Translations under genes and position numbers: made by a program | In this document: piece by piece, positions 1,836-51,896 of the stretch | Numbering within the stretch: position 1 is the first letter of the stretch | Layout: the number at the start of each line of letters is the position of its first letter | DNA from: an uncultured Ruminococcus sp. | GTDB taxonomy: Bacteria; Bacillota; Clostridia; UBA1212 | Length of the DNA stretch: 64,000 nt | Assembly: GCA_902792515.1 (NCBI GenBank) | Contig: CADAZX010000001.1 | Coordinates: 72,441-136,440, forward strand | Direction of reading: 5' to 3' | The notes under the pieces: generated by a model | Databases searched by the model: none | What the model saw: only the letters and a program-made list of their open reading frames with translations | Told to the model about the DNA's origin: nothing

Positions 1836-2948
1836 TTACTGTTCGTCAACGAAAACCTTTTTGATCGCGTCCAGATAGCCGTAGCCGTATTTCGTGTCGG
1901 GCTCAAGGTAACTCGACTCGGTCCACTCGTTCCAGCTGTTCACGGTGATGAGTCTCGCCCTGTCCGGGTGGTCGTCAAGGTATTTTTTCGCCTTTCTGAG
2001 CATTTTTTCGATATTTTCCGGCGTGTTGTCGGTAAGCGTGCCGCGCTCGGTAGTTCTGAAGCGCGGGTCGTTGTTCCAGCCCACCGAAACGTGCGGGTAG
2101 TAGACGGCCGTCGAATTCCTGTCGATCTCCGCCCACTCGCGGTCGACGATATCGAACATGTCGTTGTAGCTTCTGTCTTTCCAGAGCGGCACGAAATGCA
2201 CGAACTGGTAGTGGGAAATGCTGTCGAACCCGAGCAGCCGCACCGCGTCGTATGCCGACCCTTCGTGATTCGCGTCGACCCCGCTGAGGTTCACGGACAT
2301 CGAGTTCCAGAACGTCATCTGCAGCTCCAGCCCCGGGAAGCCCGCCTTTTTCGTCTCCTCGCGGAACCACTCGAGCGCCTCGCACGTCTTGTCGATGCCG
2401 CCGAGACCCTTTATCAGATTGCCGACGTCGTAGATCATAAACACCGGCTTTCCGTCGATCAGATAGTACTCAGGCTGCGAAAAATAGTTGTCGATGATCC
2501 TGTGAACTACCGTTTCGAAATTCGCGCGGTCCTGAGAGCCCTGCCAGATTGTCGTGTCGACAGGCAGGTCGCTGTTCCTGCGGTCCCACGTGAGACCGAC
2601 GTCGTGGTTCGCCCACATAATGTAGAATCTCATTTTCGAGCGGTTGGCAGCCTTCAAAAAGCCGTTGTCGAGGCACTGCTCAAGGAACGGCAGCCTGTCG
2701 TACCAGTACCAGTCGTAAATGAAAACGTTGACGCCGTGCGAGACCGCCTCGTCGATCTGCTTTTCCATCACCTTCGGGTCGGCCTCTTCCTCGAATCCCC
2801 AGAGCGGAAGCGGTCTCTCCGGATGCTCCTCGTGGGATTTGCGTACCGTCTGCCACTCGCCGATGCCTTCCTCCCAGAATATTCTCGATCTGATCTCCGT
2901 CCCGGTGTAGGACGGCCAGATATACGCCGCTACGTCGTATTTTTGCAT
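1836..2948 (-). CDS. Glyco_tran_WbsX-like (GH99-like fold) carbohydrate-active protein
   Basis: The N-terminus AAYIWPSYTGTE...IFWEEGIGEWQTV resembles the WbsX-family signature (YxPQFH...WWGKGFTEWTNV). A C-terminal SWNEWTE motif is present. RBS AAGGAGA precedes the ATG. Confidence 0.55.
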   Translation of the reverse strand: MQKYDVAAYIWPSYTGTEIRSRIFWEEGIGEWQTVRKSHEEHPERPLPLWGFEEEADPKVMEKQIDEAVSHGVNVFIYDWYWYDRLPFLEQCLDNGFLKAANRSKMRFYIMWANHDVGLTWDRRNSDLPVDTTIWQGSQDRANFETVVHRIIDNYFSQPEYYLIDGKPVFMIYDVGNLIKGLGGIDKTCEALEWFREETKKAGFPGLELQMTFWNSMSVNLSGVDANHEGSAYDAVRLLGFDSISHYQFVHFVPLWKDRSYNDMFDIVDREWAEIDRNSTAVYYPHVSVGWNNDPRFRTTERGTLTDNTPENIEKMLRKAKKYLDDHPDRARLITVNSWNEWTESSYLEPDTKYGYGYLDAIKKVFVDEQ

Positions 2949-2965
2949 GTTTTTTCTCCTTTTCC

Positions 2966-3078
2966 CGCGAAGTTACACAACCGTTCTTGTTTGCGCGAAG
3001 TTACGCAACCGTTCTTGTTTGCGCGAAGTCAAACGACCGTTCTTGTTTGCGCGAAGTCAAACGACCGTCTCTATAAAG
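2966..3078. repeat. Tandem 28-bp direct repeat (cgcgaagtyamacraccgttcttgtttg), about 4 copies. The last copy is degenerate and overlaps the stop codon of the 3057..6281 gene.
   Basis: Read directly: unit copies at 2966-2993, 2994-3021, 3022-3049 and 3050-3078, with 2-4 substitutions between copies. Confidence 0.85.
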
Positions 3079-6000
3079 AACCGTCCGGGTGCGTTGTCAG
3101 CCAGCGCGTAGTCCTCCGTGAAGCTTCCGCCGCCTGTCACGAACGTGTCCGGTCCAACCGCGCCCGTTATCGCCGGCACCACGTGAAGCGGCCCGAAAAG
3201 GTTCTTGCGCGTGCACACCAGCGTCACGTTAAAGCCCGTCTTCAGCCACTCCGTAACGTCTGCCTCGTAGGGCTCCCATCCGAGGATCTGCTTCCCGGAG
3301 CCGTCCGGGCCTTCGACCGTCACCAAACTTCCCGCGAAATCCGCGCACCTCAGCACTGCTTTCTCCCCTGTGCGCAGGTCGACGCCGGCGAGCATTTCCG
3401 GCGTTATTTTGTACGTGACCGTGCCCGTATACGAGAGGAGGTTCTGCTCCGCGAGGTCCGCGGGCGTCAGCTTGTCCGGAAGCACCGTCATCTTTTTGTG
3501 ACGCGAGTAGAAGCTTCCGCGGTCGCCCGGCCGCCTTCCGGGGCCTTTTTCGATGAGCTCGGATCTGACTCCGAAATCGCCGACGATATACGCCGCCTCG
3601 ATGTTGGTGGTGCGTCTGAAATGGGTCAGCGCGGTGACGACGTTTTCGCCCACTTTGAGGAGGTCGCGGCTGACGGGAATGGTCTTCAGGCAGTTGTCGG
3701 TCCAGAAGCCGCCGTCGGGAACGAGTTTCTCGCCGTTGACGAAATACGTGATCTTTTCGGGCCTCTCGGCGCAGAGCAGCACGTCGCCCTCGGGAAGGGT
3801 CTCGATCTCAAACGTGTAGTTCAGCGCGATCTGGCCGTAGTCGCTGTCGGCGTACTTTTTCGCGTACCAGGGCTGGAGCATGCCGCCGCCCCTGTGTTCG
3901 ATGCCCACGAAATCGCGCACCGCGCGGTCGAGCTTCAGCACCTCCTGCTCCGGAAAATGCTTCACTGTGCCGTCGGTCGTTATCATGTTCGCGTCGGCAA
4001 AGTCGAGCACCATCGCGTTCTTTTCGCCGAGCTCATAGTCGAATTCGCCCGCGAGCTCCTTAGAAAAGATTACTTCGCGCTTCACGCGCCTTGAAACGCC
4101 GCTCTCCTCCGCGGTCTCCGGCAGCTCGCCGCCGAAGTAGAACACAAAGAAGCGCTCGCCCGCCGGCATAAAGTCTGTCGTGACCGACACCGCGCCGCCG
4201 TTGATCTCAAGCCCGCGCACGTTGTATTTTTTGCCGTCCTCGAGGCACCACTCGACGCATCCGGTGACACCCTCGAATCCGTTTAGAGTCAGTTTCACGT
4301 TTTCCGCTCCGCGCTCCCTGTCGGTGTTCACGACCGCCAGAATGACTATTCCGTCCTTTTCGCGGGCGTCGCGCACCTGGAAGTGAAGTTCGTCGCGTTC
4401 GATATTCTCCGCTGTGAGCGAGACCGAAGCGGCGGGTTTGACGCTTCTCACGACTGCCTCGGGCGTGAACTCGTCGCGCACGCATCCGATTCCGTCAAAC
4501 GCGTTGGAATCCCTCGCGTCGACCATGTAAGGCGCGTCGCCGAGCAGCACGATCCGGCCGCCCGCCTCCGAGAACTCTTTAAGAAGCGCAAGCGTCGTGC
4601 CTCTTACTGTCTTGAGACCGCTGACAACGACCGTCTTGTACTCCATCGAGCCGACCTTCAGGACAGGTCCGTCCTCCCTCTTTTCGACGCGGCCGTGCTT
4701 CGCCATGATCTCCTCTTCGCCGTAGTCGAAGTCGACGTGCGCCGCGCGCATGTAGGCGAAAAGCTTTCTGTAGTGGTCTTCCTGCGCGTTGACGTCCGGG
4801 TCTACCGGCTGTATCCAGCGCGCCCAACCGGCGTAAACGTCCGTCCAGACGCTCTCGATTGGGTTCATTACAAGCACGTCGCACGCCGGCACGCCCTCGG
4901 TCATCAGCACGTTGAACCTCGCGAAGTAGTCCTCCACATATTTATAGTATTTATAATAAGTCGCCTGGTGCAGAATGCTGGCCGGGTAGTCGCGCTTCGC
5001 CTCGCCCTCCATCGTATACCAGGAGAGGTGCGGGCATCTGACGTTGACGCCGTAGAGCGCCTGCCAGTCGCCGACCGCCTTGTGGCCCTTGAAGTTGAAC
5101 TGCCAGCCTGAGCAGCCGTAGAGCTCGGAGAGTATCCACTTTTTGTCGAGCTGCCGCGCCGCCGACTGGATCTGCTTGGCCGCCCAGAAAACGTTCGCGA
5201 ACTCGGACAGGTTGTCGATGCCAGGAACGCCCATGTGCTCGTAAAATCTCATCAGCGAGCCGTTCGGAACGGTCTGGTTGGCAAGGCTGTCCTCGTGGAG
5301 GACGTGGCCCGTAAAGTCGATTCCGTTTTCGACGCACCAGCGGTTGATCGGCTCCGCGAACCTCTCGATGAAGAGGTTGTTGCCGAGGTCGACGTAGTCG
5401 TGCTTGACCGCCCGCGAAGTCGGGAAATCAGGCGCCTTGTAGAAAAACTCCGGCAGCTTTTCCGTGATCGAGTAGCCGTACCTTTTTTCGAACTCGTCGA
5501 AAATGTCGTCCGTGTAGAAAACCGAGCACTTCAGGAAGCCGTTTTCGTCGCGCGTGGCGTTGTCGAGCATGTGTCCTCTGTGCGGTTCGTCGGTGAAAAT
5601 GCCGCGGATCGTCTTCCAGATCTTCCTGCCGGCGTGCTTTTTGTACGCCTCGTGGGTGATCCTGATGAACTCCTCCGTCGCCGCCAGCATCATCGTGTCG
5701 ATGTAGGTCGTCCCGTTGTAACCGCTGCTCGGCCTGTCGTATTCGACAAAAAATTTAAGCAGAACGTGCCTCTGCCCCTCCTGCGCCACGTAAAGCGCCC
5801 GCTCGTTGCTTTTGATCATACGGTAGCGGAGCAGGTTGCCGGTATCTTTCTCGAAAATCGCCTCAAACGTATACAAAAGGTTCTCGGGTTCAGTTCTGTC
5901 GTCCGGCGCCGACTCCTTTACCACAAGCGACTTCATTCTGTACTTCGGGTCGCGCGTGACGATTCCGCCCGCGCATCCGCTCGGCCAGCGGTCCTCGTCG

Positions 6001-6281
6001 TAAAGCCACGGTTCCATCCCGTTTTCGTCGCCGTAGACGGCGACCTTGTTGCAGAGGTCGAACCACTCCTCTCCGAGATACTCGGTAATGAGTCCCGCGC
6101 GGCTGTGCATAAAATACCCGCCGAAGCCCATCTCTTTAAGAACGTCGACCTGCCGCTTCAGTTCCTTCTCCTCGAGTTCGCCGTTCCACGACCAGAAAGG
6201 CTTGCCCCTGAACTCATGACCCGGTGCCGAAAATTCCTTTTCAAGCGCCCCGTAACCTCTGTTTAATATACTGTTATCCAT
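3057..6281 (-). CDS. Large multidomain glycoside-hydrolase-like protein (1074 aa)
   Basis: Long ORF with RBS GGAGGAA. The N-terminal region KPFWSWNGELEE...GYFMHSRAGL...GMEPWLYDEDRWPSG is typical of a TIM-barrel GH-like family and is paralogous to the truncated gene at 1..1768. Family assignment is not secure without a search. Confidence 0.6.
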   Translation of the reverse strand: MDNSILNRGYGALEKEFSAPGHEFRGKPFWSWNGELEEKELKRQVDVLKEMGFGGYFMHSRAGLITEYLGEEWFDLCNKVAVYGDENGMEPWLYDEDRWPSGCAGGIVTRDPKYRMKSLVVKESAPDDRTEPENLLYTFEAIFEKDTGNLLRYRMIKSNERALYVAQEGQRHVLLKFFVEYDRPSSGYNGTTYIDTMMLAATEEFIRITHEAYKKHAGRKIWKTIRGIFTDEPHRGHMLDNATRDENGFLKCSVFYTDDIFDEFEKRYGYSITEKLPEFFYKAPDFPTSRAVKHDYVDLGNNLFIERFAEPINRWCVENGIDFTGHVLHEDSLANQTVPNGSLMRFYEHMGVPGIDNLSEFANVFWAAKQIQSAARQLDKKWILSELYGCSGWQFNFKGHKAVGDWQALYGVNVRCPHLSWYTMEGEAKRDYPASILHQATYYKYYKYVEDYFARFNVLMTEGVPACDVLVMNPIESVWTDVYAGWARWIQPVDPDVNAQEDHYRKLFAYMRAAHVDFDYGEEEIMAKHGRVEKREDGPVLKVGSMEYKTVVVSGLKTVRGTTLALLKEFSEAGGRIVLLGDAPYMVDARDSNAFDGIGCVRDEFTPEAVVRSVKPAASVSLTAENIERDELHFQVRDAREKDGIVILAVVNTDRERGAENVKLTLNGFEGVTGCVEWCLEDGKKYNVRGLEINGGAVSVTTDFMPAGERFFVFYFGGELPETAEESGVSRRVKREVIFSKELAGEFDYELGEKNAMVLDFADANMITTDGTVKHFPEQEVLKLDRAVRDFVGIEHRGGGMLQPWYAKKYADSDYGQIALNYTFEIETLPEGDVLLCAERPEKITYFVNGEKLVPDGGFWTDNCLKTIPVSRDLLKVGENVVTALTHFRRTTNIEAAYIVGDFGVRSELIEKGPGRRPGDRGSFYSRHKKMTVLPDKLTPADLAEQNLLSYTGTVTYKITPEMLAGVDLRTGEKAVLRCADFAGSLVTVEGPDGSGKQILGWEPYEADVTEWLKTGFNVTLVCTRKNLFGPLHVVPAITGAVGPDTFVTGGGSFTEDYALADNAPGRFFIETVV

Positions 6282-9335: not shown

Positions 9336-9530
9336 AGTTAACCTCCTAAAATAAGGTGCCGGAAAGGCACTTACCTTTATACAGCTACGGGTATTTTAAC
9401 ATCTTTCCGCATCCGGTGCAACATTTTTTTACCGGTTTTCAGATTATTTCAGATTATTCTCGCGAATATTTTTCACCTATTTTTCAAAATTGCGCGCAAA
9501 AAGCCTTCAATCAGGCGTTAATCAGGCGTT

Positions 9531-9576
9531 TTGACGCTGTTCGTGTTGCATGTTTTGATGATTATGTGATAAAATA
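9531..9576 (+). promoter_or_regulatory. Candidate promoter for the 9613 gene (TTGACG / TTGCAT -35 candidates, extended -10 TGnTAAAAT)
   Basis: ttgacgctgttcgtgttgcatgttttgatgattatgtgataaaat lies 35-80 nt upstream of the ATG. A tandem aatcaggcgtt x2 sits just upstream at 9508-9530. Confidence 0.35.
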
Positions 9577-9612
9577 CCGGCATACGTTAATTGCGAAAAC
9601 GGGAGGCGCTAA

Positions 9613-12145: not shown

Positions 12146-12162
12146 AATCCCCTATAATTAGT

Positions 12163-12207
12163 AAAAAAGTGCGGGCGGAGCCACCGGCTCCGCCCGCACT
12201 TTTTTAC
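12163..12207. terminator. Bidirectional rho-independent terminator between the convergent genes 10973..12145 and 12251..13390
   Basis: aaaaaaGTGCGGGCGGAGCC-accg-GCTCCGCCCGCACtttttt: a perfect 15-bp stem flanked by an A-run and a T-run. Confidence 0.8.
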
Positions 12208-12250
12208 TGTACGATTTTCCCTTTTTAAAGAAGCATTTTTAACCGATACT

Positions 12251-13453: not shown

Positions 13454-14227
13454 TCAGGCCTCCTGCAGCGGGTAGAGAAGCCCGATCTGCCTCTCCGCAA
13501 AAAACTCCGTCCACTCGATGCCCGGGTTCCTGTCCGTGACAACTATGTCCACGTCCTCGACCTTGCAGATTTCCACCAGCGACACCCGGTTGAACTTCGT
13601 ACTGTCGATCGCGAGAATTTTCGTCCTCGCCGCCCCGATTATCGCCTTTTTGATCTCCGCGTCCTCGTCGTTCGAGTCCGTCAGACCGTTGCGCATGTCG
13701 ATTCCCTTGCACGAAAATATCGCGTAGTCAACGTGGAACGACTTTATCGCCTCGACCGCCCGCGCCCCGACGAACGCGTAGCCGCCCTCCTTGAGCATGC
13801 CCCCTGTCGCGAAAACCCTCCAAAACGGCTTGTCGCACAGCTCGCAAACGATCTCGGACGAATTCGTGATGACCGTCAGGTTCTTCCTGACCTTGAGCGC
13901 CTTGATCACGAAAAGCGCCGTCGAGCTGCCGTCGAGCATCACGTTCGAGCTCTCGGGAATGATATCCCCGGTCACGTTCGCTATCGCCTGCTTGAGTTCC
14001 ACGTTCGACAGCTTTCTGACCGAATACGGCAGGTCGACGTCCGAGCTCTCCGCCAAAACCGCGCCGCCGTAGATTTTCCTCGCGACGCCCTCGTTTTCAA
14101 GCTTGAGAAGGTCTCTCCTGACGGTCTCCTCCGTAACGTCAAAATGCGTCGCAAGGTCGCTGACTATTACCTTTTTCTCTTTCTGAAGCAAGTCCTTAAT
14201 GTACTGCTTCCTCTCGATTGCCAGCAT
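13454..14227 (-). CDS. DeoR/GlpR-family transcriptional regulator
   Basis: N-terminal HTH (RKQYIKDLLQKEKKVIVSDLATHFDVTEETVRRDL) plus a C-terminal DeoR sugar-binding domain. Confidence 0.9.
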   Translation of the reverse strand: MLAIERKQYIKDLLQKEKKVIVSDLATHFDVTEETVRRDLLKLENEGVARKIYGGAVLAESSDVDLPYSVRKLSNVELKQAIANVTGDIIPESSNVMLDGSSTALFVIKALKVRKNLTVITNSSEIVCELCDKPFWRVFATGGMLKEGGYAFVGARAVEAIKSFHVDYAIFSCKGIDMRNGLTDSNDEDAEIKKAIIGAARTKILAIDSTKFNRVSLVEICKVEDVDIVVTDRNPGIEWTEFFAERQIGLLYPLQEA

Positions 14228-14266
14228 CTCTGAAACGCGCCTGCTCTTTCTTCTGTAAAATCCGAT

Positions 14267-14391
14267 GTGTCTCCGCTTGGTCTCCGGTTTAGCTGCCGCA
14301 CTTACCTTAATTCAACGACGCCGCAGCTTTATGTTGGCGGCATGAACGATTCCGCGAAGCGGTCAAGTGAAGGACGCAACTTAAAGTGCGG
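14267..14391. repeat. Intergenic modular repeat, copy A (block X 14267-14295 plus hairpin block Y 14320-14391)
   Basis: Block X is near-identical to 25857-25887. Block Y is near-identical to 25941-26012 and to the reverse complement of 47030-47107. Y has a long imperfect stem enclosing ccgc-gaa-gcgg. Confidence 0.8.
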
Positions 14392-14619
14392 CTGATAATT
14401 TTAGTTGTGTCTACAGCCGGAAATCTGCTGTCCCGAAAATCTGCGCTCTGGAAACTGCAAAGTCCGGAGCTATTTTTGCGTGCGGTCGTCCGAAGCTGTA
14501 CGAAGGTACTGCGAGCGGCGACCTCGCGCAAAGCAGTTTGCCGGGCAATCGCCATAGGCCCCTTATTTTTATATTACAATTCGGCAAACTGCGTAAAGAG
14601 CCCGGAATCTGCAGTTTCC

Positions 14620-15180
14620 TTAGACTATGGTTTCCCAGAGCTTCTTGTCCGGGCGAGGAATGATCGCGCTGTCGAGGCACATGCCTTCCTCCGCGACCGT
14701 CGCTATCGCCTTTTCCACCGCCGCCGTAACCGCCGCCACGTCGCCGGTAAAGAGTACGTACGACTTTCCGGCCATACCGTTCGCGAGCCTCAGCTCAACG
14801 AGCCGGACCTCCGCGGTTTTCGCCGCCACATCAGCCGCGACGATTGCGCCGGCTACCGAAAAAGTCTCAACGATTCCGAGCGCCTCGACCTCTCCGAACT
14901 CCGCGGCACCGAACATTGCCGAGAAGATCGACTCGTGCGGGTTGCCGAGCACGAAGCTGTCCACGAGCATTTCCGGGAAATTCGTTTTCGCCGCTTCGAT
15001 CGCGGCCTTCACGCTTCCGAGCCTTCCCGAGACGAGAATCACGTACTTTCCGGGGCAAACCGGGTGCGCGTCAAGCACCTCGACCTCGGCCGCCTTGATA
15101 AGGATATCGGCCGCTTTGAGACCCGTTGAAATCGTTCTGTATTCGACTAAGCCAATTGCACTGCTCATACCGGTTTTCAC
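14620..15180 (-). CDS. pduT: Tandem-domain BMC-T shell protein, PduT-like
   Basis: Two Pfam00936-type BMC domains. EMLVDSFVLGNPH, GIVETFSVAG and IPRPD motifs, and a Cys in the first domain (HPVCPGKY), match PduT. Confidence 0.8.
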   Translation of the reverse strand: MKTGMSSAIGLVEYRTISTGLKAADILIKAAEVEVLDAHPVCPGKYVILVSGRLGSVKAAIEAAKTNFPEMLVDSFVLGNPHESIFSAMFGAAEFGEVEALGIVETFSVAGAIVAADVAAKTAEVRLVELRLANGMAGKSYVLFTGDVAAVTAAVEKAIATVAEEGMCLDSAIIPRPDKKLWETIV

Positions 15181-17833: not shown

Positions 17834-18074
17834 TTTCTTCCGCCTTTATTTCTTCCGTTCTTTCCGCCCGGGCGCCTTTCCTTCCTTTAAGAAGGCGGTA
17901 CGCTTTTTTGCAAGCGCTCCGGCGCCCGCGGCATAAAAACTCAACGTTTCCCGGGCAATACTTCAAAGCGCGATACGTCGATTTGATACGTCAATTCGAT
18001 AAGTCAACGCAATGCGTCAACGCGATACCGCAATGATATCCCGCACCGTCCGGGAATTATAAATACGGGGATAA

Positions 18075-18353
18075 TTACTTCAGTACGGGAAGAATTCTCT
18101 CGACGTCGTTGTGAGGTCTGGGGATCACGTGGGTGGCTACGAGTTCGCCGAGCTTGGCAGCGTTTGCGCCGCCGGCTTCAACAGCGGATTTAACGGCGCC
18201 GACGTCGCCTCTTACCATAACGGTAACGAGTCCGGAACCGATCTTCTCGGTGCCGACAAGTTCAACGTTAGCAGCTTTGAGCATTGCATCGGCCGCTTCG
18301 ATCGCAGCTGTAAGTCCTCTTGTTTCAACCATTCCTAAAGCCTGTTGTACCAT
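18075..18353 (-). CDS. BMC-H shell protein (PduA/PduJ-like). The start was probably miscalled in the ORF track, which gives an upstream Lys-rich extension to 18494.
   Basis: [30 protein letters not shown]...IPRPH. A strong RBS AAGGAGG lies immediately upstream of the internal ATG at 18351-18353. Confidence 0.85.
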
Positions 18354-18498
18354 TTTCTTTTCCTCCTTAATTGTTTCAACATTTCCGCTTCCCGCGGATT
18401 CAGTTTTGATTTCTTTTACATTCGGAGCCGCCGGCTTCTTTACGTCAGCCTTCGGCTTTCCGGTGTTTGCCGGTGTTTTCTTAGTTTCTGCCATAATG

Positions 18499-18819: not shown

Positions 18820-18950
18820 GTTTTCGAGCTTCCGCCCTTTTCAAAATCCGACCGTAACGTAACGCGACGGTTCCGTCCTCTGACGTCTCGTGAGGCGCCG
18901 TTTTAACGTTCTTTACGTCAAGAACACTAAATCAGCGTTTTCCGATTATT

Positions 18951-19229
18951 TTATTTCGCCTGGGGAAGGATCTTCTCCACGTCGTTGTGCGGTCTCGGAA
19001 TAACATGAACCGCTATGAGCTCGCCGAGTTTGCCTGCGTTTGCGGCGCCGACTTCGGTAGCCGCCTTAACAGCCGCGACGTCGCCTCTTACCATAACGGT
19101 AACGAGTCCGGAGCCGATCTTCTCGGTGCCGATGAGGGTGACCTCTGCCGCTTTAACCATTGCGTCGGCCGCTTCGATAGCCGCTGTAAGACCTCTGGTC
19201 TCAACCATGCCCAATGCTTCCTGTACCAT
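18951..19229 (-). CDS. BMC-H shell protein (PduA/PduJ-like), paralogue of 18075..18353
   Basis: [30 protein letters not shown]...IPRPH. RBS GGAGG lies before the ATG at 19227-19229. The track ORF extends upstream, probably spuriously. Confidence 0.85.
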
Positions 19230-19377
19230 AACATTTACCTCCATTAGAATTTCAAGTTGTTTCACTCTGCCGGGTCTTGCGCTCCGTCTGCGTTCCGCGT
19301 CGCTTTTCGCACCGGAAACGTCATTTTCGCGCATGCCCGAAAATAATTACATTGCCGTTCCGCCGCCCGCCTCAAGG

Positions 19378-19692: not shown

Positions 19693-19927
19693 TTTCGTAA
19701 AATTCTCCGGGTTTTAATCTTTTCCTCCCCGCGGCAGTCCGCCGTTTTTAGGAAGGACGTTATTTTCTGCAGCGGGCATTCTCGAAAATCCTCAAACCGG
19801 GAATCCGGGAACGCTCTGCCGCTCATTCAAAGTCAGCCGGTCTTTTTAAGGGAATGCGCTCTTACGCTTGACATCAAATATTCGCCGCTTGCGTAAAGAG
19901 CATTAAATCTCTGCATTTCCGTGCCGG

Positions 19928-24961: not shown

Positions 24962-25753
24962 TTATCCTCCGATCTGGCATCTCAGGCCGCTCTTTTTCGC
25001 GACCTCCAGAAGCGATTCCATGTACGACTGCGACATCGGCTCGATTCCGTCCAGAAGGTATTCCCTGCCGAGTCCCGTGTACTTGTCCTGCCCGAGCCTG
25101 TGGTACGGAAGCAGGTGGAGCTGCTCAACGCCGGGAAGCGAGGCCGCGAACGTCGCGATCTGCCTTATCTCCTCGGGCGTGTTGTTGAACGTCGGGATGA
25201 CCGGCACCCTTATAATAAGCTCGACGTCGCTCTCCGCGACCTTGCGCGCGTTTTCGAGAATGCGCGTGTTCGGCTTCCCGGTGAACTCCTCGTGCTTTCT
25301 CGGGTCCATGTGCTTGATGTCCATCAAATAAGTGTCGAGGTAAGGGAGAAGCTTTTGGATGTTTTCGAACGGCAGCGTCGCGGCCGACTCGATCGCGGTG
25401 TTGATTCCGTTCTCCTTGGCAGCCCTCAGAAGCGCCGCCGCGAAGTCCGGCTGGCAGAGGCACTCGCCTCCGGAAAGCGTCAGACCTCCGTTCGAGTTCC
25501 GGTAGTAGTCGCCGTCCTTCATGACCTCTTCCATGACTTCAGCCACGGTGACGTCCCTGCCGATTATTTTTTTCTTGCCGGCTACGGTCATCTCCTGGAT
25601 CTTGTACTCCTGGGACTCCGGGTTGCAGCACCATCTGCATCTCAAGACGCAGCCCTTCAAAAAGACTATCGTCCTGATGCCGGTGCCGTCGTGGATCGAA
25701 TATCTCTGGATGTCGAAAATCCTTCCGGTCTGCTGCATGTAGTTGTCGTTCAT
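24962..25753 (-). CDS. Glycyl-radical-enzyme activating enzyme (radical SAM, PflA family)
   Basis: CxxxCxxC radical-SAM motif (CVLRCRWCCNP), glycine-rich SAM motif (LTLSGGECL), ~263 aa. It lies 289 nt downstream of the glycyl radical enzyme. Confidence 0.9.
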   Translation of the reverse strand: MNDNYMQQTGRIFDIQRYSIHDGTGIRTIVFLKGCVLRCRWCCNPESQEYKIQEMTVAGKKKIIGRDVTVAEVMEEVMKDGDYYRNSNGGLTLSGGECLCQPDFAAALLRAAKENGINTAIESAATLPFENIQKLLPYLDTYLMDIKHMDPRKHEEFTGKPNTRILENARKVAESDVELIIRVPVIPTFNNTPEEIRQIATFAASLPGVEQLHLLPYHRLGQDKYTGLGREYLLDGIEPMSQSYMESLLEVAKKSGLRCQIGG

Positions 25754-25829
25754 TGTCGGTTGATTTTTCCTTGAGTTTCAGTGTTTTCCGCTGCTTTGGA
25801 AGCAGTTGTTCGTTGAAATCGCCAGGTTT

Positions 25830-26027
25830 CGAGCTATTTTCGCGTGCGCGGACCCGCGTGTGTCTCCGCTTGGTCTCCGGTTTAGCTGGCGCTAAAAGTC
25901 GCCCTCGCGCGAGACGCACGCGATTCTACCTTATAAACGTCGACGCAGCTTGATATTGCGACATGAACGATTCCGCGTTAGCGGTCAAGTGAGGGACGCA
26001 ACATAAAGTGCGGACTGCGTAAAGAGC
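25830..26027. repeat. Intergenic modular repeat, copy B (blocks Z, X, Y, W), lying between the glycyl radical enzyme and its activase
   Basis: Z 25830-25851, X 25857-25887, Y 25941-26012, W (ctgcgtaaagagc) 26015-26027. The blocks match copies at 14267-14600. Confidence 0.8.
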
Positions 26028-26042
26028 CGAAAGCCGGCGATT

Positions 26043-28571
26043 TTAGAAATTGTTAGCCTGAGTCGTCCTCGAAATAATGTCGTCCTGGAGGGATCTGGAA
26101 AGCGTCGTGAACAGCGCGCTGTATCCCGCGACCCTTACCACGAGCGCTTTGTACTTCTCGGGGTGCTGCTGAGCGTCGAGCAGCGTCTCGCGGCTGACCA
26201 CGTTGAACTGCACGTGCATGCCCTTTCTGTTGAAGTACGTTCTCAGGTAGGTGATGAAGTCGTTGATGCCCTTCGGGCCCGAGAGCGCCGACGGGTGGAA
26301 CTTCTGGTTGTAGAGAGTTCCGTTGGAGGCGATCAGGTGGTCGATCTTCGCGACCGAGTTTGCCGCCGCCGTGGGTCCGAGCTTGTCCCTGCCCTGTGCG
26401 GGGCCGATGCCGTCCGCGATAGGAGCCTGCGAAAGTCTGCCGTCGGGAGTCGCGCACGACTGGGCGCCGAGCGGAACGTTCGCGGAGACCGGATAGAGGC
26501 CCGCCTGGAAGATGCCGCCGCGAGGATTCCTGAACGTCTCAAGCGGCTTTGTGTATGTGTACGCGACGTCTCTCGCGAAAAGGTCGATCTCGTCGATGTC
26601 GTTGCCGTACTTGGGAAGCGCCTCGATGTCGTCGAGCATCTTTTCGTAGAAATCGACACGCTCTTTGGGGAGCTGCTTGGATGCCGCCGCGCTCGCGTAT
26701 ACCGCCTTGATGACTTCGGGGGTGATCTCCCTGCCGTCCTTGGCGAGCTTAGCGCAGACCGTCTTCACGATGTGCTCCATATCGAGCGGCGTGAGCCCTT
26801 TTCCGAAGTTGTCCGCCATAGCCTGCTTGAAATCGGCCATCGTGTACTTTTTCTCCTCGAAAACGAGCTTTTTGATCGCGAACAGGCCGTCCGCGACGTT
26901 GGCGATACCGAAGCCTTGAGGGCCGGTGAAGTTGTAGATCGCTCCGCCCTCTTCCACGCACTTGCCGGATTCGAAGCACCCGTCTGTGAGGCAGGACTCG
27001 AACGGAAGCGGGCTTCTCTGAGCGTGGGCGTAATCTATCGCGTTGATTGCGTTTACCATCAGCGCGATGGAGGTTGTCATCTGCTTCTTGTAGGCGTTGT
27101 AGAGCTCGTCGAACGTAGTCATCTTGAGCACGTCGCCCGTCTCGACAGTTACAAGCTCGCCGTCCTCCCAGCCGTTCGTGAACGTGAGCTCGAGAGGTCT
27201 GAGCATGTTGAAGAACGCCGCGTCGTGCCAGCCGTCGGTCTTGCCCGGAACCTGGGGCTCCACGCAGCCGATAATGTTGTACTCGCGCGCCTCTTCAAGC
27301 GGAATTCCGCGGTTCATGAGGGCGGGAATGATGACCTCGTCGTTGTAGTAAGCCGGGAGGCCGATACCGGTTCTGGTGAGCTCGACCGCCTTCACAAGGA
27401 TCTCGTGGGGCGTTCCGTTCCAGATCCTGATGGAAAGAGAAGGCATCGGCAGTCCGGTGTGCATGGAAGCTTCGATGCACATCGCGGAAAGGTCGTTCGT
27501 GACGTCCTTGCCGTCCCTGTCCTGGCCGCTTACGATCAGGTTCTGGAAGAGGCTGTAGCCGGCGAATCCCTCCGCGGAAGCGGCGTCGCGGCACTTGTTG
27601 AGGTCGTTCAGCTTGATCCAGATGCAGTCGAGAAGCTCCTGCGCGGACTCTCTCGTGATCGTACCTGCGTCGAGGTCCTTTTTATAATAAGGATACATAT
27701 ACTGGTCGAATCTTCCGGGCGAGATCGAGTGGCCGCTCGACTCAAGCTGGAGGAGCTGCTGCACGAACCAGAAAGCCTGGCACGCCTCGTGGAACGACTT
27801 GGCCGGATTCTCGGGAACGTTGCGGCACACCTGCGCGATCTTAAGCAGGTCGGTGCGCCTCTCGCCGCTCGCGGACTGAGCCATTTTCTCAGCCAGATCA
27901 GCGTATCTGTTGGCATATCTGATGACCGCCTTGCAGCTTCTGATGACCGCCTCATAGAAGATCCTGCGCTTGCACGCGTCTGCCTTGCCTACGCACATCT
28001 CCGCCATTTCCTTTTCGGCTCTCGCGATGACGCCCTTGAGGCCCTCGCCGAGAACGGTCCAGTATGTGACCGTGATGTGGCCGATGCCGTTGTAGAAATA
28101 GTTGCCCGGCGTGAAAATGTTGTGGTTAATCGCCCTGAGAGCTCTCGGGTCCATAAACGCCGTCGCGAGCTCGCTTGTAGTCTTGTTCTTCCAGTACTTG
28201 TCCGCCTCCGCGATCCTGCGCTTGGCGTCTTCGCTGATATTGAACGGGTCCGCCTTTCTGTCGGCGACGGTGTCGAACTCCGCCTCGAGCCACTCGTACG
28301 AGAACTCCGGATAAGTCTGGCAGCCTCTCATTTTAATCGTGGTGCTGCCGACGATGAGTTCGTCGTCGCGGATGACGATCGGAATGTTGTCCAGAATGTG
28401 CTCGAACGCCCTCGATTTCCTCTCCACCTCGGGAAGGTTCTCGGTAGCTTTGTACGACTCTGTAATAAGTTCAGCCCTCGCCGGCTCAATCTCCGGTTTA
28501 GCATTATAAAAGGCGTCAAGGAGTCTGTCGATTCTGGCGGTCTTTTTGATTGGGCTCGTATCGAAATTCAT
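26043..28571 (-). CDS. Glycyl radical enzyme, probable B12-independent 1,2-propanediol dehydratase (PFL2/glycerol-dehydratase class)
   Basis: 842 aa. Glycine-radical motif RVAGYSALF near the C-terminus. Eliminase-type active-site loop GCVEP. N-terminal region (ELITESYKATE...AFEHIL...IRDDELIVGSTT) and the internal WFVQQLLQLESSGHSISPGRFDQYMYPYY block match remembered diol-dehydratase sequences. Confidence 0.7.
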   Translation of the reverse strand: MNFDTSPIKKTARIDRLLDAFYNAKPEIEPARAELITESYKATENLPEVERKSRAFEHILDNIPIVIRDDELIVGSTTIKMRGCQTYPEFSYEWLEAEFDTVADRKADPFNISEDAKRRIAEADKYWKNKTTSELATAFMDPRALRAINHNIFTPGNYFYNGIGHITVTYWTVLGEGLKGVIARAEKEMAEMCVGKADACKRRIFYEAVIRSCKAVIRYANRYADLAEKMAQSASGERRTDLLKIAQVCRNVPENPAKSFHEACQAFWFVQQLLQLESSGHSISPGRFDQYMYPYYKKDLDAGTITRESAQELLDCIWIKLNDLNKCRDAASAEGFAGYSLFQNLIVSGQDRDGKDVTNDLSAMCIEASMHTGLPMPSLSIRIWNGTPHEILVKAVELTRTGIGLPAYYNDEVIIPALMNRGIPLEEAREYNIIGCVEPQVPGKTDGWHDAAFFNMLRPLELTFTNGWEDGELVTVETGDVLKMTTFDELYNAYKKQMTTSIALMVNAINAIDYAHAQRSPLPFESCLTDGCFESGKCVEEGGAIYNFTGPQGFGIANVADGLFAIKKLVFEEKKYTMADFKQAMADNFGKGLTPLDMEHIVKTVCAKLAKDGREITPEVIKAVYASAAASKQLPKERVDFYEKMLDDIEALPKYGNDIDEIDLFARDVAYTYTKPLETFRNPRGGIFQAGLYPVSANVPLGAQSCATPDGRLSQAPIADGIGPAQGRDKLGPTAAANSVAKIDHLIASNGTLYNQKFHPSALSGPKGINDFITYLRTYFNRKGMHVQFNVVSRETLLDAQQHPEKYKALVVRVAGYSALFTTLSRSLQDDIISRTTQANNF

Positions 28572-28796
28572 GTCATTCCTCCGTACTTTTCCTTCAAGGG
28601 CGCGTTTTCCGCCCCCTGTCTCAGCTATATATCGTTTTAAAAACGCTTTTCATCTTTAGAAAGCTCTAATTTAACGGCAAACTGCGATAACAAGTATATT
28701 GTAACCCGTTTGCCGCTTGCGCAAAGAGCATTTAATCGGCGTTTCCTTCGGAAAATACCGCAAGGCATAGTAAGGCCTATTACGGAAACTACATAT

Positions 28797-30875: not shown

Positions 30876-31949
30876 TCAGTCTTTAAAACACAACCACATC
30901 GCGGGTCGGACACCGGTATCGAGTTGTTGCAGTAAGCCGCCGTATGCCGGCATAACGCCCGCCGGGTCAACGACTGCCATGCCCGAGGTCTTCTGCGGGG
31001 GGGCGAAAGGATTCGTCTGTTCCATGGCGTGCGCCGGATTGCGGGTCCACCAGTAGCTCGCGAGTTCACCGTCCGTGGTCTTATCATATTCCGCTACGTA
31101 CAGTCCCTTTGACTTAGCGTAAGGAGTCCCCGCGCACCTCCTTGCCTCGTATGAATTGAAATATGTTTCGACTTCGAGCATGCTCAGGAGAAATAACCGG
31201 TCGTATGTACTGTTTCCCGGGTCGAGATTGGGATCATCGGGATTTTCGGTATTCTTGTCCGCCGGAACATGCGAAAGTTGTATCGACGACCGCTCTTCCG
31301 GAGTGAACGCACCGTTGAGGAACGTACTGCTTAGCCACTCGCGCAGGTCGCACGTCTCCCATTTCTGCTTATCCTTGTCCGAGCCGGTGTTGACAGGCTG
31401 ACAATCGAGTATGTATTTGCTTACAAGAAGCGCCTTGTTGTCAGCTTTCTTCAAAACCAGCCATTCGATTTTTTCTTTCCCGTTGCCGGCGTTGTTGTCC
31501 TGCTCGTACGATCCGAATTTGATAATGTCGCCGGCCTTTAAATTTTTGTACACTGATAGTGACAGAGGATTAGGCGTCGGCGTAGGAGTAGGCGTGGGAG
31601 TCGGTGTCGGCGTGGGCGTCGGTGTCGGCGTAGGAGTAGGGGTAGGCGTGGGCGTCGGCGTCGGTGTCGGTGTAGGCGTGGGCGTCGGCGTACACTCTGT
31701 GGGGGCAATATCAAGCCAAGATCCTGTAGACGCAGGCGTCGGTTTCGAAGTAATCTCCGGCGTTATCTCCGGCGTGACTCCCTCCGTAACCTCCGGCAGC
31801 TTTGTGGCACCTGGCGTATTCAAAGCCGCAACCTCTTCGGTGTTCTGCGGCGGCGTGAAAGGCAGACAGCCCGCGAGCATTATAACGGCCAGAAGAAGAA
31901 CAGCCGGCAGTATTGCACGTTTCCGCCTCATATTCGTGGTGTTAAACAT
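30876..31949 (-). CDS. Lipoprotein with a (TP)n linker and a C-terminal DUF6273-like domain
   Basis: Start reassigned to MFNTTNMRRKRAILPAVLLLAVIMLAGC (RBS AAAGGAGG, lipobox LAGC). A (TP)30-type linker and a C-terminal GDIIKFGSYEQDN...IEWLVL...YWWTRNP...VRPAMWL domain follow. The upstream part of track ORF 30876..32123 is non-coding repeat DNA. Confidence 0.65.
   Translation of the reverse strand: MFNTTNMRRKRAILPAVLLLAVIMLAGCLPFTPPQNTEEVAALNTPGATKLPEVTEGVTPEITPEITSKPTPASTGSWLDIAPTECTPTPTPTPTPTPTPTPTPTPTPTPTPTPTPTPTPTPTPTPNPLSLSVYKNLKAGDIIKFGSYEQDNNAGNGKEKIEWLVLKKADNKALLVSKYILDCQPVNTGSDKDKQKWETCDLREWLSSTFLNGAFTPEERSSIQLSHVPADKNTENPDDPNLDPGNSTYDRLFLLSMLEVETYFNSYEARRCAGTPYAKSKGLYVAEYDKTTDGELASYWWTRNPAHAMEQTNPFAPPQKTSGMAVVDPAGVMPAYGGLLQQLDTGVRPAMWLCFKD
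31561..31700. repeat. Coding hexanucleotide microsatellite (GGCGTN)n encoding the (TP)n linker
   Basis: About 23 tandem units ggcgtc/ggcgta/ggagta/ggtgtc, read directly. Confidence 0.85.
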
Positions 31950-31975
31950 GTGATCGCCTCCTTTAAAATCATCAG

Positions 31976-32035
31976 TTTGGGAAGTATCAGTCTGAGAAGT
32001 ATCAGTTTGAGAAGTATCAGTCCGAAAAGTATTCG
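31976..32035. repeat. 15-bp tandem direct repeat (gaagtatcagtytga), about 3.5 copies, upstream of the lipoprotein gene
   Basis: ttgggaagtatcagtctgagaagtatcagtttgagaagtatcagtccgaaaagtattcg. Confidence 0.8.
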
Positions 32036-32041
32036 CGAACC

Positions 32042-32524
32042 TCAGCCGCGAACCATTCTTATCACGGTCACGGGGGTCCCGATCACGAGCTCCTGCTCGA
32101 ATCCGTCCCTCACGAAGCCGCACTTTTCATAAAATCTGATTGCGCGCGCGTTGTTTTTCAGCACCCTTACGAACGCGCGCTTCCCTTCAAGCTTTTCAAG
32201 TCCGGCGTCCATCAGCGCCATGCCGATGCCGGTCCCATAGTACTCCGGAAGAACATACAATGCATAAATTTCCCCCGCGCCGGGAAGGTCTTCGACTCTG
32301 CCCTCCCCGTAGGCGCAAAAGCCTGCGACCTTTTCGCCGACCTTGGCGACAAGAGTGTTTTCTGGGTATTTGAACGCCGCCGCGGTGCACTTTTCGAGCG
32401 TCAGCGCTTCAAGGTACGATGCGTCGACGAGCCCCCTGTACGCCTCCTGCCACGATTTCCAGTGCACGTACGCCTTCCCGGCGATCTCGCCGTCCGTCTC
32501 CATTTTTTTGATCTCGAATTCCAC
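32042..32524 (-). CDS. GNAT-family N-acetyltransferase
   Basis: Acetyl-CoA binding motif (YVLPEYYGTGIGMAL), ~160 aa. Confidence 0.85.
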   Translation of the reverse strand: MEFEIKKMETDGEIAGKAYVHWKSWQEAYRGLVDASYLEALTLEKCTAAAFKYPENTLVAKVGEKVAGFCAYGEGRVEDLPGAGEIYALYVLPEYYGTGIGMALMDAGLEKLEGKRAFVRVLKNNARAIRFYEKCGFVRDGFEQELVIGTPVTVIRMVRG

Positions 32525-36984: not shown

Positions 36985-37032
36985 AACGCGGAAACGCGGA
37001 GCCGGCTGCCGGCTCCGCGTTTCCGCGTTTTC
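36985..37032. terminator. Bidirectional terminator between the convergent genes 35632..36882 and 37063..38637
   Basis: GCGGAAACGCGGAGCCGGC-tgcc-GGCTCCGCGTTTCCGCG hairpin followed by ttttcc. Confidence 0.75.
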
Positions 37033-38637: not shown

Positions 38638-38991
38638 CCTCCGCGGCGCGGGTTTCTCCGCCCTGCCGCTCTCCTTTCAGGCGCACCGGCGCCCGTTTTT
38701 TCCGCAAATCAAACGATTGTTCCGCCTTTTCATTGTAAGTGAAACACGCGCGAAAATCAAGAGGTTTCCGGGGCCCGGCGGGTCGCATTGTCGCATGGCG
38801 TCATTTAACCGCTCACGAAGGCGTTAACAGGCTTGTACGGCGGCATGTTTTGAGAGAAAAACGCGAAAAAAGCCTCAATTTGGGACAAATTGCGCAAAAC
38901 CTATTGAAATCACTTTAAGTATATTTTATAATAAAACGTATAGGAAAAGGGGCAATGAACCGACCGCCTGAAGCGCCGGATCATTCCGCTT

Positions 38992-39043
38992 AAAAAAAGC
39001 TTAAACCCGCCGTAAAGCAGGCGGCTTTAAGCTTTTTTTGATA
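38992..39043 (-). terminator. Rho-independent terminator after the 39057..41624 gene
   Basis: AAGCTTAAACCCGCC-gtaaagca-GGCGGCTTTAAGCTT flanked by an A-run and a T-run. Confidence 0.75.
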
Positions 39044-39056
39044 TCGAAGAACCGTT

Positions 39057-46355: not shown

Positions 46356-46892
46356 ATGAAAAAAACTCTCTTGATTATTAATGCTCTCGCGCTCGTTCTT
46401 CTTTTGGCGGTCACACTCACCGGCTGTTCTTTCCTGTCGCACCTGTCCGGCCTCGACAACGACGCGCCCCTCACGAGGAAGGACGGCACCGGCAACGCCT
46501 ACGTTACCGGCGGCAAGTCGCTCAACCCGCCCACGGCAGCGCCCGACGACGGTTCATCTGAGGATCCGTACCAGATACCCCAGATCGGAGGAGCGGAGTG
46601 GCCCGACAACGAATACACGAAGCAGGTTCCGAAGCCGGACTTCAAGCTGCTGGCGGTGTCTCTCGACGAAGAGGACGAATCGTTCACGGCGGCGTTCATG
46701 AACGCAACGGCTGAGGAGGTCAAGGCATACGCCGAGAAGGTCAAGGAGGCCGGCTTCACCGTCGACCCCGAGCTTCAGGACGAAACCGTCATGGGCATGA
46801 CGATCTACAGCTACACCGCCTCGAACGGGAACGGCTACACCGTCACCGTCAGCTTCACCGCCTCGACAGGCGCTTTGAAGATTTCGAAATAA
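46356..46892 (+). CDS. Lipoprotein (hypothetical)
   Basis: Signal peptide with lipobox LTGC. 178 aa. The next feature is a terminator. Confidence 0.55.
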   Translation: MKKTLLIINALALVLLLAVTLTGCSFLSHLSGLDNDAPLTRKDGTGNAYVTGGKSLNPPTAAPDDGSSEDPYQIPQIGGAEWPDNEYTKQVPKPDFKLLAVSLDEEDESFTAAFMNATAEEVKAYAEKVKEAGFTVDPELQDETVMGMTIYSYTASNGNGYTVTVSFTASTGALKISK

Positions 46893-46962: not shown

Positions 46963-47029
46963 TTTATTCCGTTTTTTCAACTCAGGTAAACGCTGAGTTA
47001 ATAGCTATTTTTTCGAGCGCGACCCCGAA

Positions 47030-47107
47030 GCCGCATTTTATGTTGCGGCCCTCACTTGACCGCTTCGCGGAATCGTTCATGCCGCCAACATAAAACTGTA
47101 CGCGGCT
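47030..47107. repeat. Intergenic modular repeat, copy C (block Y in inverted orientation)
   Basis: The reverse complement of 47030-47107 aligns with 14320-14391 and 25941-26012. The W block (ccgcttgcgtaaagagcatttaatc) lies at 47238-47262. Confidence 0.8.
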
Positions 47108-47261
47108 CTACTGCGAAAGGGGAGCTCTCGAAAAGCAAGCGGCCAGCAATCGTCACAAGACACATTATTCTCTCTGGAGATAGTCGAAGTTAACGAACTA
47201 CGGTCAAATACGCCCATACGCTGGCTGTCAGATCTTCGCCGCTTGCGTAAAGAGCATTTAA

Positions 47262-47846: not shown

Positions 47847-47957
47847 AGCCGTCCCTCCTTTCGGAAACATGATACAACGCGCGCGAAAACGGCGCAACCT
47901 GCGCTTCGTAGAGTTCGCGAACCGGAAGTTAAAAAGCCGGAAGTTTTCAACGTGTTT

Positions 47958-51467: not shown

Positions 51468-51896
51468 AATAGGACCTCCTCTCAATCTAAATAGTATTAT
51501 AGAGCAACAGCGATAATTTTTCAACTATTTTATGAGCGAGTTAGTCGCGGGTTTTGCATTTTTATGAGCGTGTTTTTATGTTCCCACACCTTTTTATGTC
51601 AAAAAAGGCCTCGCCGCATCACAGCATCACAGCAAAGTCCTAAAAACCGCTTGTATAAAATTTAATGTATATAAAAAATGTTGTATTGGAGTCCGTATTG
51701 ATTGGTTACTTAAGGGTGCAATTAAGGTGCAAACTCACGATCAAAACAGCTCTCAAAGCTTGATATTTAAGGCTTTTCACCGCTCGGTTGGTAGAGTGCC
51801 GTGGCAGACGAACAGTATCTTAATCATATCGTTTTCATGTTTTATCGGGGTTTGGATGCCTTTCTATACCCGGATTCCTGCATTATTAATTATCGT

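Follow-up and report, generated by a model that had tools for sequence, protein, structure and literature searches.

The REP, BIME, and REPIN sequences are extragenic palindromes that form hairpins in single-stranded DNA or mRNA and are arranged in mosaic clusters (PMC3116915). [quoted passage not shown] In operons of Clostridium, intergenic stem-loops set the stoichiometry of subunits via selective RNA processing and stabilization (PMC4423207). Here we concentrate on recurring intergenic sequences in a 64-kb stretch (the window) of contig CADAZX010000001.1 from an uncultured Ruminococcus sp., which harbors a bacterial microcompartment (BMC) locus with a glycyl radical enzyme (GRE) and its activase. 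An initial annotation of the window had marked four blocks, denoted X, Y, Z, and W, and considered REP/BIME- or MITE-like elements, sites of a global regulator, or small structured RNAs. The first of these options is supported, as the copies are dispersed, extragenic, palindromic, mosaic, strain-variable, and multi-copy in a related metagenome-assembled genome (MAG). The four blocks are probably parts of one lineage-specific, non-coding, and non-autonomous family of palindromic mosaic repeats of the REP/BIME/REPIN and MITE class; the assignment is to this general class and not to any named family. The host of the family is an uncultured rumen Clostridia lineage, and the family is a genomic passenger, not a dedicated part of the microcompartment.

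All intergenic regions of the window were compared by blastn with the whole window. The recurrence of near-identical intergenic blocks was borne out by this comparison, by a covariance model, and by shuffled sequences: Y is present three times (at sites termed A, B, and C), X twice, and W or Z at six sites, all far above chance. The copies of Y at sites A and C are 93% identical over 70 nt (14324-14393 vs 47098-47029, E 3e-22), those at sites A and B 87% (14314-14391 vs 25936-26013, E 5e-18), and those at sites B and C match with an E of 2e-14 (25946-26013 vs 47098-47031). The covariance model of Y, run over the 64 kb with filters off, yields exactly three copies with 82-102 bits (14312-14399 on the minus strand, 25934-26022 on the minus strand, and 47023-47111 on the plus strand), followed by a match of 25 bits that is the antisense of one of them. 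X at 14266-14299 and 25859-25892 is 97% identical over 34 nt (E 5e-9). A longer form of W at 19853-19909, 28709-28760, and 47207-47286 shows mutual matches with E values from 1e-4 to 3e-11, and a weaker copy is located at 18913-18940. The 28-nt end motif of the elements occurs twice with three or fewer mismatches (0.00 expected), while short W (GGCTCTTTACGCAG) occurs five times with two or fewer mismatches (0.37 expected; 0 of 100 shuffles reach five). Z is weak on the window alone (76% over 34 nt, E 0.02) and becomes clear after alignment with copies from other loci. The positions given in the initial annotation were correct within a few bases, apart from Z at site A, which is found at 14467-14485 and not at 14475-14500; both copies of X are real, the second one beginning at 25859.

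The architecture of the elements emerged from an alignment of whole intergenic regions from eight loci; L-numbers (L001, L029, L105, etc.) are the labels of comparison strains or contigs. The aligned regions have both ends in common, the left one with ...GGAAGCGCTGATTTAATAGCTATTTTTGCGTGCGCG... and the right one with ...CGCCGCTTGCGTAAAGAGCATTAAATCAGCGTTTCC. As the two ends are inverted copies of each other, long W is the right terminal repeat and Z the inner portion of the left one. The terminal inverted repeat is imperfect and comprises about 28 nt (GGAAACGCTGATTTAATGCTCTTTACGC), and fuzzy matching detected inverted end pairs 287-499 nt apart at eight loci (window 46986-47272, L029, L034, L053, L054, L067, L075, and L099). 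A second subfamily has short W as its terminal-repeat motif, with an outer part (GGAAACTGCAGATTCCGG for site A, AAATCGCCGGCTTTCG for site B) that recurs in mirrored form at the opposite end of each unit. At their outermost bases, the ends do not follow one consensus and co-vary within single elements; the window has GTAAAC at both ends, L029 has GGAAGC...TTTAGT, and L075 has TGAAACAC. The elements range in size from 170 to 499 nt, are GC-rich (50-64%), and are frequently located directly after terminators or nested in other copies.

Complete elements bounded by these ends are about 290-500 nt long and hold long hairpins, namely Y, a hairpin termed V-X, and two or three others, so that folding can close the entire element on itself. 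V (GTCTCGCGCGAGGGCGACTTTTAGC) is a newly recognized block that pairs with X as one hairpin branch in the fold of L029. This complete element of 358 nt folds with -165.7 kcal/mol (z -8.6). The fold is closed by a stem of the two ends, has Z paired to a segment downstream of it, and branches into Y and V-X. The stems of the other hairpins vary between copies with their complementarity kept (GCAGUUUGCCG/CGGCAAACUGC vs CAAUUUGCCCG/CGGGCAAAUUG). The modular reordering of four blocks proposed at first is thus retained only in part: the elements are mosaic, but Z and W are one terminal repeat and X is half a hairpin. The apparent shuffling is mostly due to opposite orientations, nested insertions, and internal deletions; an example of the latter is site C, where V and X are deleted relative to L105 and L099. 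No credible open reading frame (ORF) was found within the elements. Two ORFs called in an array of copies in L038, one of 72 aa (4653-4871, GC3 0.59) and one of 71 aa (4740-4955), were judged spurious. Variable internal modules between fixed end modules are also known from the BOX elements of Streptococcus pneumoniae (boxA-boxB(n)-boxC) and from ERIC/IRU sequences, which are likewise intergenic, often co-transcribed, form stable RNA folds, and lack a transposase of their own. Sequence and host of BOX are unrelated, however, and its modules are not nested hairpins with conserved loops.

Y itself is a hairpin of about 75 nt. In the predicted fold, the outer stem of about 18 bp leads to two internal loops separated by a 2-bp helix and then to a terminal hairpin of 4-6 bp. 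In an alignment of 17 distinct copies from the window, other strains, and the related MAG, the stems covary; a covariance analysis of Y had been proposed in the initial annotation. Changes on both sides are seen in 8 of the 24 predicted pairs, and 97.8% of the alignment cells are paired. The covariation score amounts to 0.302 vs 0.150 +/- 0.013 for shuffled alignments (0 of 500 reach it), and controls with slid partners score at most 0.107. The inner hairpin is present as CCGC/GCGG, UGGGC/GCCCA, or UGUGC/GCACA, and the outer stem as AUGUU/AACAU or GCAUC/GAUGC; these changes come from few copy lineages and reflect few independent events. The loop strands CCCUCACUUGAC and GAAUCGUUCAUGCC are nearly invariant across the copies, and the bases 5' of the stem are variable (agct, cgaa, agca, gcag, agag). 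Judged from the aligned sequences, the shape of the hairpin is clearly maintained by selection.

These features resemble the REP/BIME sequences of enterobacteria and the REPIN-RAYT systems of Pseudomonas (Gilson, Stern, Bachellier; Bertels and Rainey, PMC3116915), which are also extragenic, imperfectly palindromic, and species-specific. Shared traits are mosaic clusters of hairpin units in alternating orientation and in company with other short motifs, possible hairpins in single-stranded DNA or mRNA, the lack of target-site duplications, variability between strains, and hairpin complementarity that is kept through changes on both arms. Differences exist as well. REP sequences measure 20-60 nt, whereas the Y hairpin comprises 75 nt with two conserved internal loops; no conserved 5' tetranucleotide of the GTAG type was seen; and the whole composite is bounded by 28-nt terminal inverted repeats, unlike REP or REPIN.

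The distribution of the family was assessed by searching the loop strands of Y in one genome per species (185,579 species). Among 37 matches, only seven also had the flanking stem, and these reside on five contigs of one MAG, Mageeibacillus sp. UBA1212 (NCBI name; Oscillospiraceae according to NCBI). Those in Ornithinibacillus, Paucisalibacillus, Chromohalobacter, and others have no such stem and were set aside as chance or unrelated conserved DNA. A search of metagenomes gave 40 matches with 14 true copies, all from rumen assemblies. The covariance model added diverged copies and tandem arrays, with three Y copies with differing linkers in L038 and two copies each in L067, L081, L099, and L005, the latter two contigs carrying two types of Y. 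In total, about 18 distinct sites are distributed over the window, the UBA1212 MAG, and rumen contigs. The initial annotation had made a repeat family depend on copies elsewhere, and many were found in the related MAG and the rumen contigs. Gene calls around the copies, made with a simple caller based on ORFs and GC3, place every Y copy at the roughly 18 sites between genes. Confinement to intergenic DNA, as originally proposed, holds for every piece in the window, too, bar an overlap of 11 nt at site C. No match was obtained in viral contigs, and none to the 511-nt composite element in plasmid and phage collections. The whole window has no match in Rfam 15 at the gathering score; with E up to 10, Rfam shows none for site A and only chance-level ones, far below the gathering score, for the L038 array. 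A scan for tRNA and tmRNA found none. As no match exists in Rfam, the plasmid and phage collections, or the literature searched, the family appears to be undescribed until now.

Compensatory stem changes together with near-invariant loops are the classic pattern of a functional RNA, and the pattern holds in three stem lineages, including the 2-bp helix inside the loop. Y, alone or with neighboring hairpins, might hence be a multi-copy functional structured RNA, i.e. a protein-binding motif, a processing signal, or a small ribozyme, with the conserved loops CCCUCACUUGAC and GAAUCGUUCAUGCC as active or bound surface. Two of the window copies are certainly co-transcribed with the BMC operon, and among about ten copies between co-directional genes six to seven are sense. 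Three, however, are antisense (L022, L029, and L034), so that orientation is not fixed. Both strands fold about equally well, with the antisense of Y on average 3.8 kcal/mol more stable and with 28 G-U pairs in the sense vs 15 in the antisense strand; without a consistent asymmetry in energy and G-U pairs, an RNA-only function is not indicated. A scan for promoters and intrinsic terminators inside the elements gave nothing convincing, and the only good predicted promoter (28825-28797) is located upstream of the piece in the 5' untranslated region (UTR) of the GRE operon. Further, Rfam lacks a match even at E 10, the exact loops are found in 1 of 185,579 species genomes, and presence differs between strains with identical flanking genes. 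From the option of a small structured RNA the strong covariation of the stems therefore stands, while the mixed orientation, the equal folding of both strands, the missing promoter or terminator, and the missing Rfam match speak against it, and we consider it unlikely. Similarly doubtful is the more general notion that Y represents a new functional nucleic-acid motif, either as the recognition hairpin of a structure-guided mobilization in Clostridia or as a multi-copy RNA or ribozyme whose copies in the operon tune the ratio of GRE to activase. If the Y loops were indeed a protein or ribozyme site, they would offer a new handle on hairpin-guided recognition of DNA or RNA.

Variation between strains was studied on contigs that encode proteins identical to the DeoR, activase, and DUF6591 proteins of the window; MAGs with this locus are GCA_017518545.1, GCA_017965335.1, and UBA1212 (DBXM01). 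Despite flanking proteins of 100% identity, strains carry different element alleles, in which entire modules have been gained, lost, or replaced. The spacer between the BMC shell gene and the DeoR gene (site A) measures about 195 nt (no Y), 392 nt (window), 435 nt (with an extra V arm), or 631 nt (with a second, diverged Y). The spacer between the GRE and activase genes (site B) is free of element sequence in the 72-nt allele and contains only short W in the 120-nt allele; the two longer alleles hold W, Y, and Z, with a different linker between Y and Z (239 nt) or with V-X in that place (289 nt). Downstream of DUF6591 (site C), 87 nt (no element, different DNA), 369 nt (window), or 581 nt (two types of Y) are found; at the same locus, a 499-nt element with two Y is present in L099 and none in L098, L101, L102, and L106. 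As strains with identical flanking proteins differ in them, the Y-bearing parts are dispensable and show a quick turnover. By contrast, no strain differs in the solo end pieces of the 5' UTR and of the spacer before a shell gene. A separate observation concerns L054 and L075, two metagenome contigs with the left flank and the left end of an element in common; their right ends and right flanks differ, which points to recombination or rearrangement at the element.

Another explanation would take the blocks as operators for a regulator of the BMC locus, such as the adjacent DeoR protein or a nucleoid protein, or as what is left of a duplicated gene. Indeed, the window has five of its six element sites in or beside the BMC locus, and the solo ends in the GRE 5' UTR and before the shell gene are kept in every strain compared. 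The concentration at this locus may only reflect the room in its long spacers. UBA1212 and rumen contigs carry the elements, too, at a dozen or more loci that are unrelated, and these copies outside BMC loci largely refute the explanation. The Y-containing parts are dispensable between strains, and the units are hundreds of nucleotides long; the global regulator that had been considered finds no counterpart in multi-hairpin elements of 290-500 nt whose presence varies between strains with identical flanking proteins. Fragments of a duplicated gene or pseudogene, which the initial annotation had kept in view, are contradicted by the lack of any ORF or protein similarity, and the blocks are not alignable as coding sequence. 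Taken together, operators or gene remnants are highly improbable. A cis-regulatory RNA would be expected to be conserved with fixed place and orientation, whereas the Y pieces are strain-variable, located at unrelated loci, and in three cases antisense; only the solo pieces 19853-19920 and 28655-28751 show the strain conservation expected of a cis-regulatory RNA of the BMC locus.

The elements may also be considered as classical MITEs, i.e. deletion derivatives of an insertion sequence (IS) with a DDE transposase, moved by cut-and-paste via the duplex ends of about 28 bp, with the internal hairpins being incidental. Their clear terminal inverted repeats, their size of 287-499 nt, and their non-coding, multi-copy, intergenic, and very stably folding nature are compatible with this and belong to the features listed for MITEs (PMC10969869). 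The ends start with G(G/T)AA(G/A)CG, which we presume to resemble the GTAAGCG ends of the IS66 family. Flanking target-site duplications, a check proposed at the outset, were sought in seven well-preserved elements for lengths of 2-9 nt at 17 x 17 offsets (-8 to +8), and none was found at any length or offset; the best result, 3 of 7 for 2-3 nt, is at chance level. This absence argues against a classical MITE of the DDE type, and so do the outermost end bases, which co-vary within elements instead of forming a single consensus, and the internal stems, which are selected for pairing. No parent in the form of an autonomous IS with matching ends was found in the comparison loci, the plasmid and phage collections, or the 40 ORFs scanned. 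The origin as classical MITEs is accordingly rated as improbable. In comparison with described MITEs, such as the Correia elements of Neisseria and QMITE2 of Coxiella (PMC10969869), the elements share terminal inverted repeats of about 23-29 bp, a length of a few hundred bp, the non-coding character, the location in spacers or at the ends of genes (a stop codon is supplied by one of the copies here), and a predicted transcript structure of high stability. They differ in the lack of flanking direct repeats, in being GC-rich (50-64%) and not AT-rich, in the covariation of the internal stems, and in having no known parent IS.

For the favored palindromic mosaic repeats, the process of dissemination can be outlined as follows. 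A protein supplied in trans would copy or recombine the elements, now or in the recent past, and would recognize the folded hairpin instead of plain duplex ends; the nearest model may be the dependence of REP/REPIN on a single-copy HUH tyrosine transposase. The mosaics would arise by homologous recombination between copies. Given the missing duplications and the complementarity kept in stems and ends, a hairpin-recognizing single-strand mechanism appears likelier than duplex cut-and-paste. Several points weigh against this assignment. Among 40 ORFs (30 of the window and 10 of related loci), Pfam revealed no transposase. In contrast to REPIN-RAYT systems, no RAYT gene (Y1 HUH transposase) was located in the roughly 0.4 Mb examined, a small part of any genome; further differences from these systems are the host, a rumen bacterium of the class Clostridia, and the lack of sequence similarity. 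The missing target-site duplications count here as well. Clean empty-site alleles were sought at all three window sites and none was found, the short alleles carrying remnants or replaced DNA; without a clean pair of filled and empty sites, the polymorphism could be explained by deletion or recombination between copies instead of recent transposition. With its 75 nt and two conserved internal loops, Y is larger and more elaborate than a typical REP, and the effect on the mRNA of the operon outlined below is entirely inferred. Other candidates were discarded as well: an integron attC array, as the copies are dispersed in both orientations and lack an R'/R'' core; invertible promoters, as the internal sequence is kept from site to site and inverted alleles were not seen; and group II intron fragments, a retron, or CRISPR, all of which have an unsuitable architecture.

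The copies inside the operon (sites A and B and the 5' UTR) are expected to be co-transcribed. In the mRNA, the very stable hairpins may passively block 3' exonucleases or be used for processing, and at site B such a hairpin would favor the upstream GRE mRNA over the downstream activase mRNA, which would fit the need for more GRE than activase. By analogy, mRNA processing or stabilization is a likely consequence of a copy between two genes of one operon. A stable hairpin after the gene that is needed more, here GRE before the activase, is also a trait of the processing stem-loops of Clostridium (PMC4423207, PMC10311766). The latter are single, locus-specific, and conserved, whereas the hairpins here are dispersed repeats that are absent from some strains. 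Since strains with identical enzymes lack the element, any effect on the mRNA would be a side-effect and not a designed or essential regulator.

For annotation, the large spacers in the GRE microcompartment operon are to be seen as occupied by mobile or recombining repeats and should not be labeled as operators, riboswitches, or genes of small RNAs. In rumen metagenomes, variation between strains has hotspots at the elements, which probably also break assemblies, as several contigs end inside them. A REP/BIME-like system in uncultured Clostridia is of biological interest in itself, and the series of GRE-activase spacers (72, 120, 239, and 289 nt) provides a natural experiment on hairpins and the expression ratio of enzyme to activase.

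The individual element sites are described in the following together with their genes, which were assigned by Pfam scans. Where the initial annotation had seen two copies inside the microcompartment locus, five element pieces are found in or beside it, i.e. site A, 18915-18943, 19853-19920, site B, and 28655-28751. Site A is bordered by a BMC shell gene (14620-15180, minus strand) and the DeoR regulator gene (13454-14227, minus strand) and consists of two units in opposite orientation, a Y-less unit (14450-14619, plus strand) and a V-Y-X remnant (14399-14266, minus strand). The short Y-less unit, delineated by sequence reading, fold, and homologous units in L038, L081, and L005, has an outer inverted repeat (GGAAACTGCAAAGTCCGG at 14450-14467 and CCGGAATCTGCAGTTTCC at 14602-14619) that encloses Z (14467-14485), two long hairpins, and short W (14589-14602); it adjoins the stop codon of the shell gene (14620-14622). 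The two long hairpins fold with -66.7 kcal/mol (14462-14606, z -5.2). Between the units, two extra solo outer-repeat motifs (CCGGAAATCTGCTGTCC and CCCGAAAATCTGCGCTCT) can be read at 14417-14449 (plus strand), a motif that also flanks units in L005 and L078. The remnant comprises the Y copy at 14312-14399 (minus strand; hairpin proper about 14318-14393; 101.6 bits and E 9e-23 with the covariance model, supported by the fold), which is sense to the flanking BMC and DeoR genes, and the X copy at 14266-14299 (minus strand), identified by blastn and the V-X folds as the 3' arm of the V-X hairpin. Its partner, the V arm of 43 nt, is deleted at this site and present in strains L001 and L005.

Two solo pieces follow within the BMC locus. 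A degenerate terminal repeat (GGAAAACGCTGATTTAGTGTTCTTGACGT; 18915-18943, minus strand) recognized by sequence comparison lies 8 nt past the stop codon of a shell gene and is kept in L001, L002, L003, and L005. A solo long-W end with a subterminal hairpin (AAUGCUCUUUACGC...GCGUAAGAGCGCAUU; 19853-19920, minus strand), found by blastn and strain comparison, lies between the Zn-ADH gene and a shell gene and is identical in 5 of 5 strains compared. Elsewhere in the window, 9494-9521 in the spacer 9336-9612 weakly matches the terminal repeat (TTAACGCCTGATTGAAGGCTTTTTGCGC, six substitutions plus indels); other strains have kept this stretch, which may represent a solo end in a highly degenerate state or a chance match.

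Site B, situated as initially described between the genes of the GRE (26043-28571, minus strand) and its activase (24962-25753, minus strand), is a complete short element (25816-26034, minus strand) according to blastn, fold, and strain comparison. Along the direction of transcription it is composed of an outer repeat (26034-26018), short W (26028-26015), Y (26022-25934), V (about 25926-25893), X (25892-25859), inverted Z (25851-25831), and the second outer repeat (25831-25816). Its fold corresponds to that of L029, with -92 kcal/mol (z -3.5) and the end repeats closing the structure. The copy in the 5' UTR of the same operon, likewise part of the first description, turned out to be a mini-element (28655-28751, minus strand; sequence and strain comparison) with a terminal repeat (28746-28719, one mismatch to the consensus), a hairpin (CGGCAAAC/GUUUGCCG), and a closing GCUCU/AGAGC pairing. 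It begins about 50 nt downstream of the predicted promoter (TTGACG-17-TATACT).

Site C is located between the DUF6591 gene (46356-46892, plus strand) and a convergent gene for an XRE-type helix-turn-helix (HTH) protein (47262-47897, minus strand). Alignment and end-pair matching define a full composite of 287 nt (46986-47272, plus strand) with the left, Z-side repeat (46986-47014), Y (47023-47111), an internal hairpin region, and the right long W (47245-47272). The last 11 nt of the right repeat (47262-47272) overlap the 3' end of the HTH gene and provide its final three codons and the stop (...FVCKR*), which indicates that the insertion reshaped the C-terminus of this protein. L098 (3625-5761), L101, L102, and L106 have other genes in place of the DNA that follows DUF6591. 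Among those of L098 is one for a large serine recombinase (Resolvase, Recombinase, Zn_ribbon_recom, DUF4368), which points to an integrative element where the window has the site C repeat.

Some further features of the window were observed. Four tandem copies of a 28-nt unit (TCTTGTTTGCGCGAAGTTACGCAACCGT), 80-84% identical, are located at 2957-3068; they fill the 108-nt spacer from the ORF 3057-6281 (minus strand) to the ORF 1836-2948 (minus strand), directly upstream of the start of the latter, and look like an iteron or operator array. In the BMC operon, the gap between a shell gene and the PTAC gene (17980-18060) contains a run of TTGACG(C/T)AT-like repeats (gcgttgacgcattgcgttgacttatcgaattgacgtatcaaatcgacgtatcgcg) that has no relation to the repeat family; DeoR or another regulator could use it as an operator. 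At 50136-53219, genes for an AAA_14/DUF4143 ATPase and a Schlafen AlbA_2/HATPase_c_4 protein fail the GC3 >= 0.62 filter that their neighbors passed, and the region may be a foreign or defense-type islet. The DUF6273 ORF (30876-32123, minus strand) carries in-frame tandem repeats at 31548-31703 (period of 6/18 nt) and 31971-32030 (15 nt), which probably encode a low-complexity linker. Long perfect or near-perfect palindromes at gene ends, one between convergent genes (12160-12208) and two after single 3' ends (36985-37029 and 38962-39069), look like ordinary bidirectional terminators; one gene-end palindrome scores 17.8 bits with the Y model, a weak match attributable to chance. Finally, a direct repeat of 293 nt with 78% identity (18087-18379 vs 18963-19255) corresponds to paralogous BMC shell genes.

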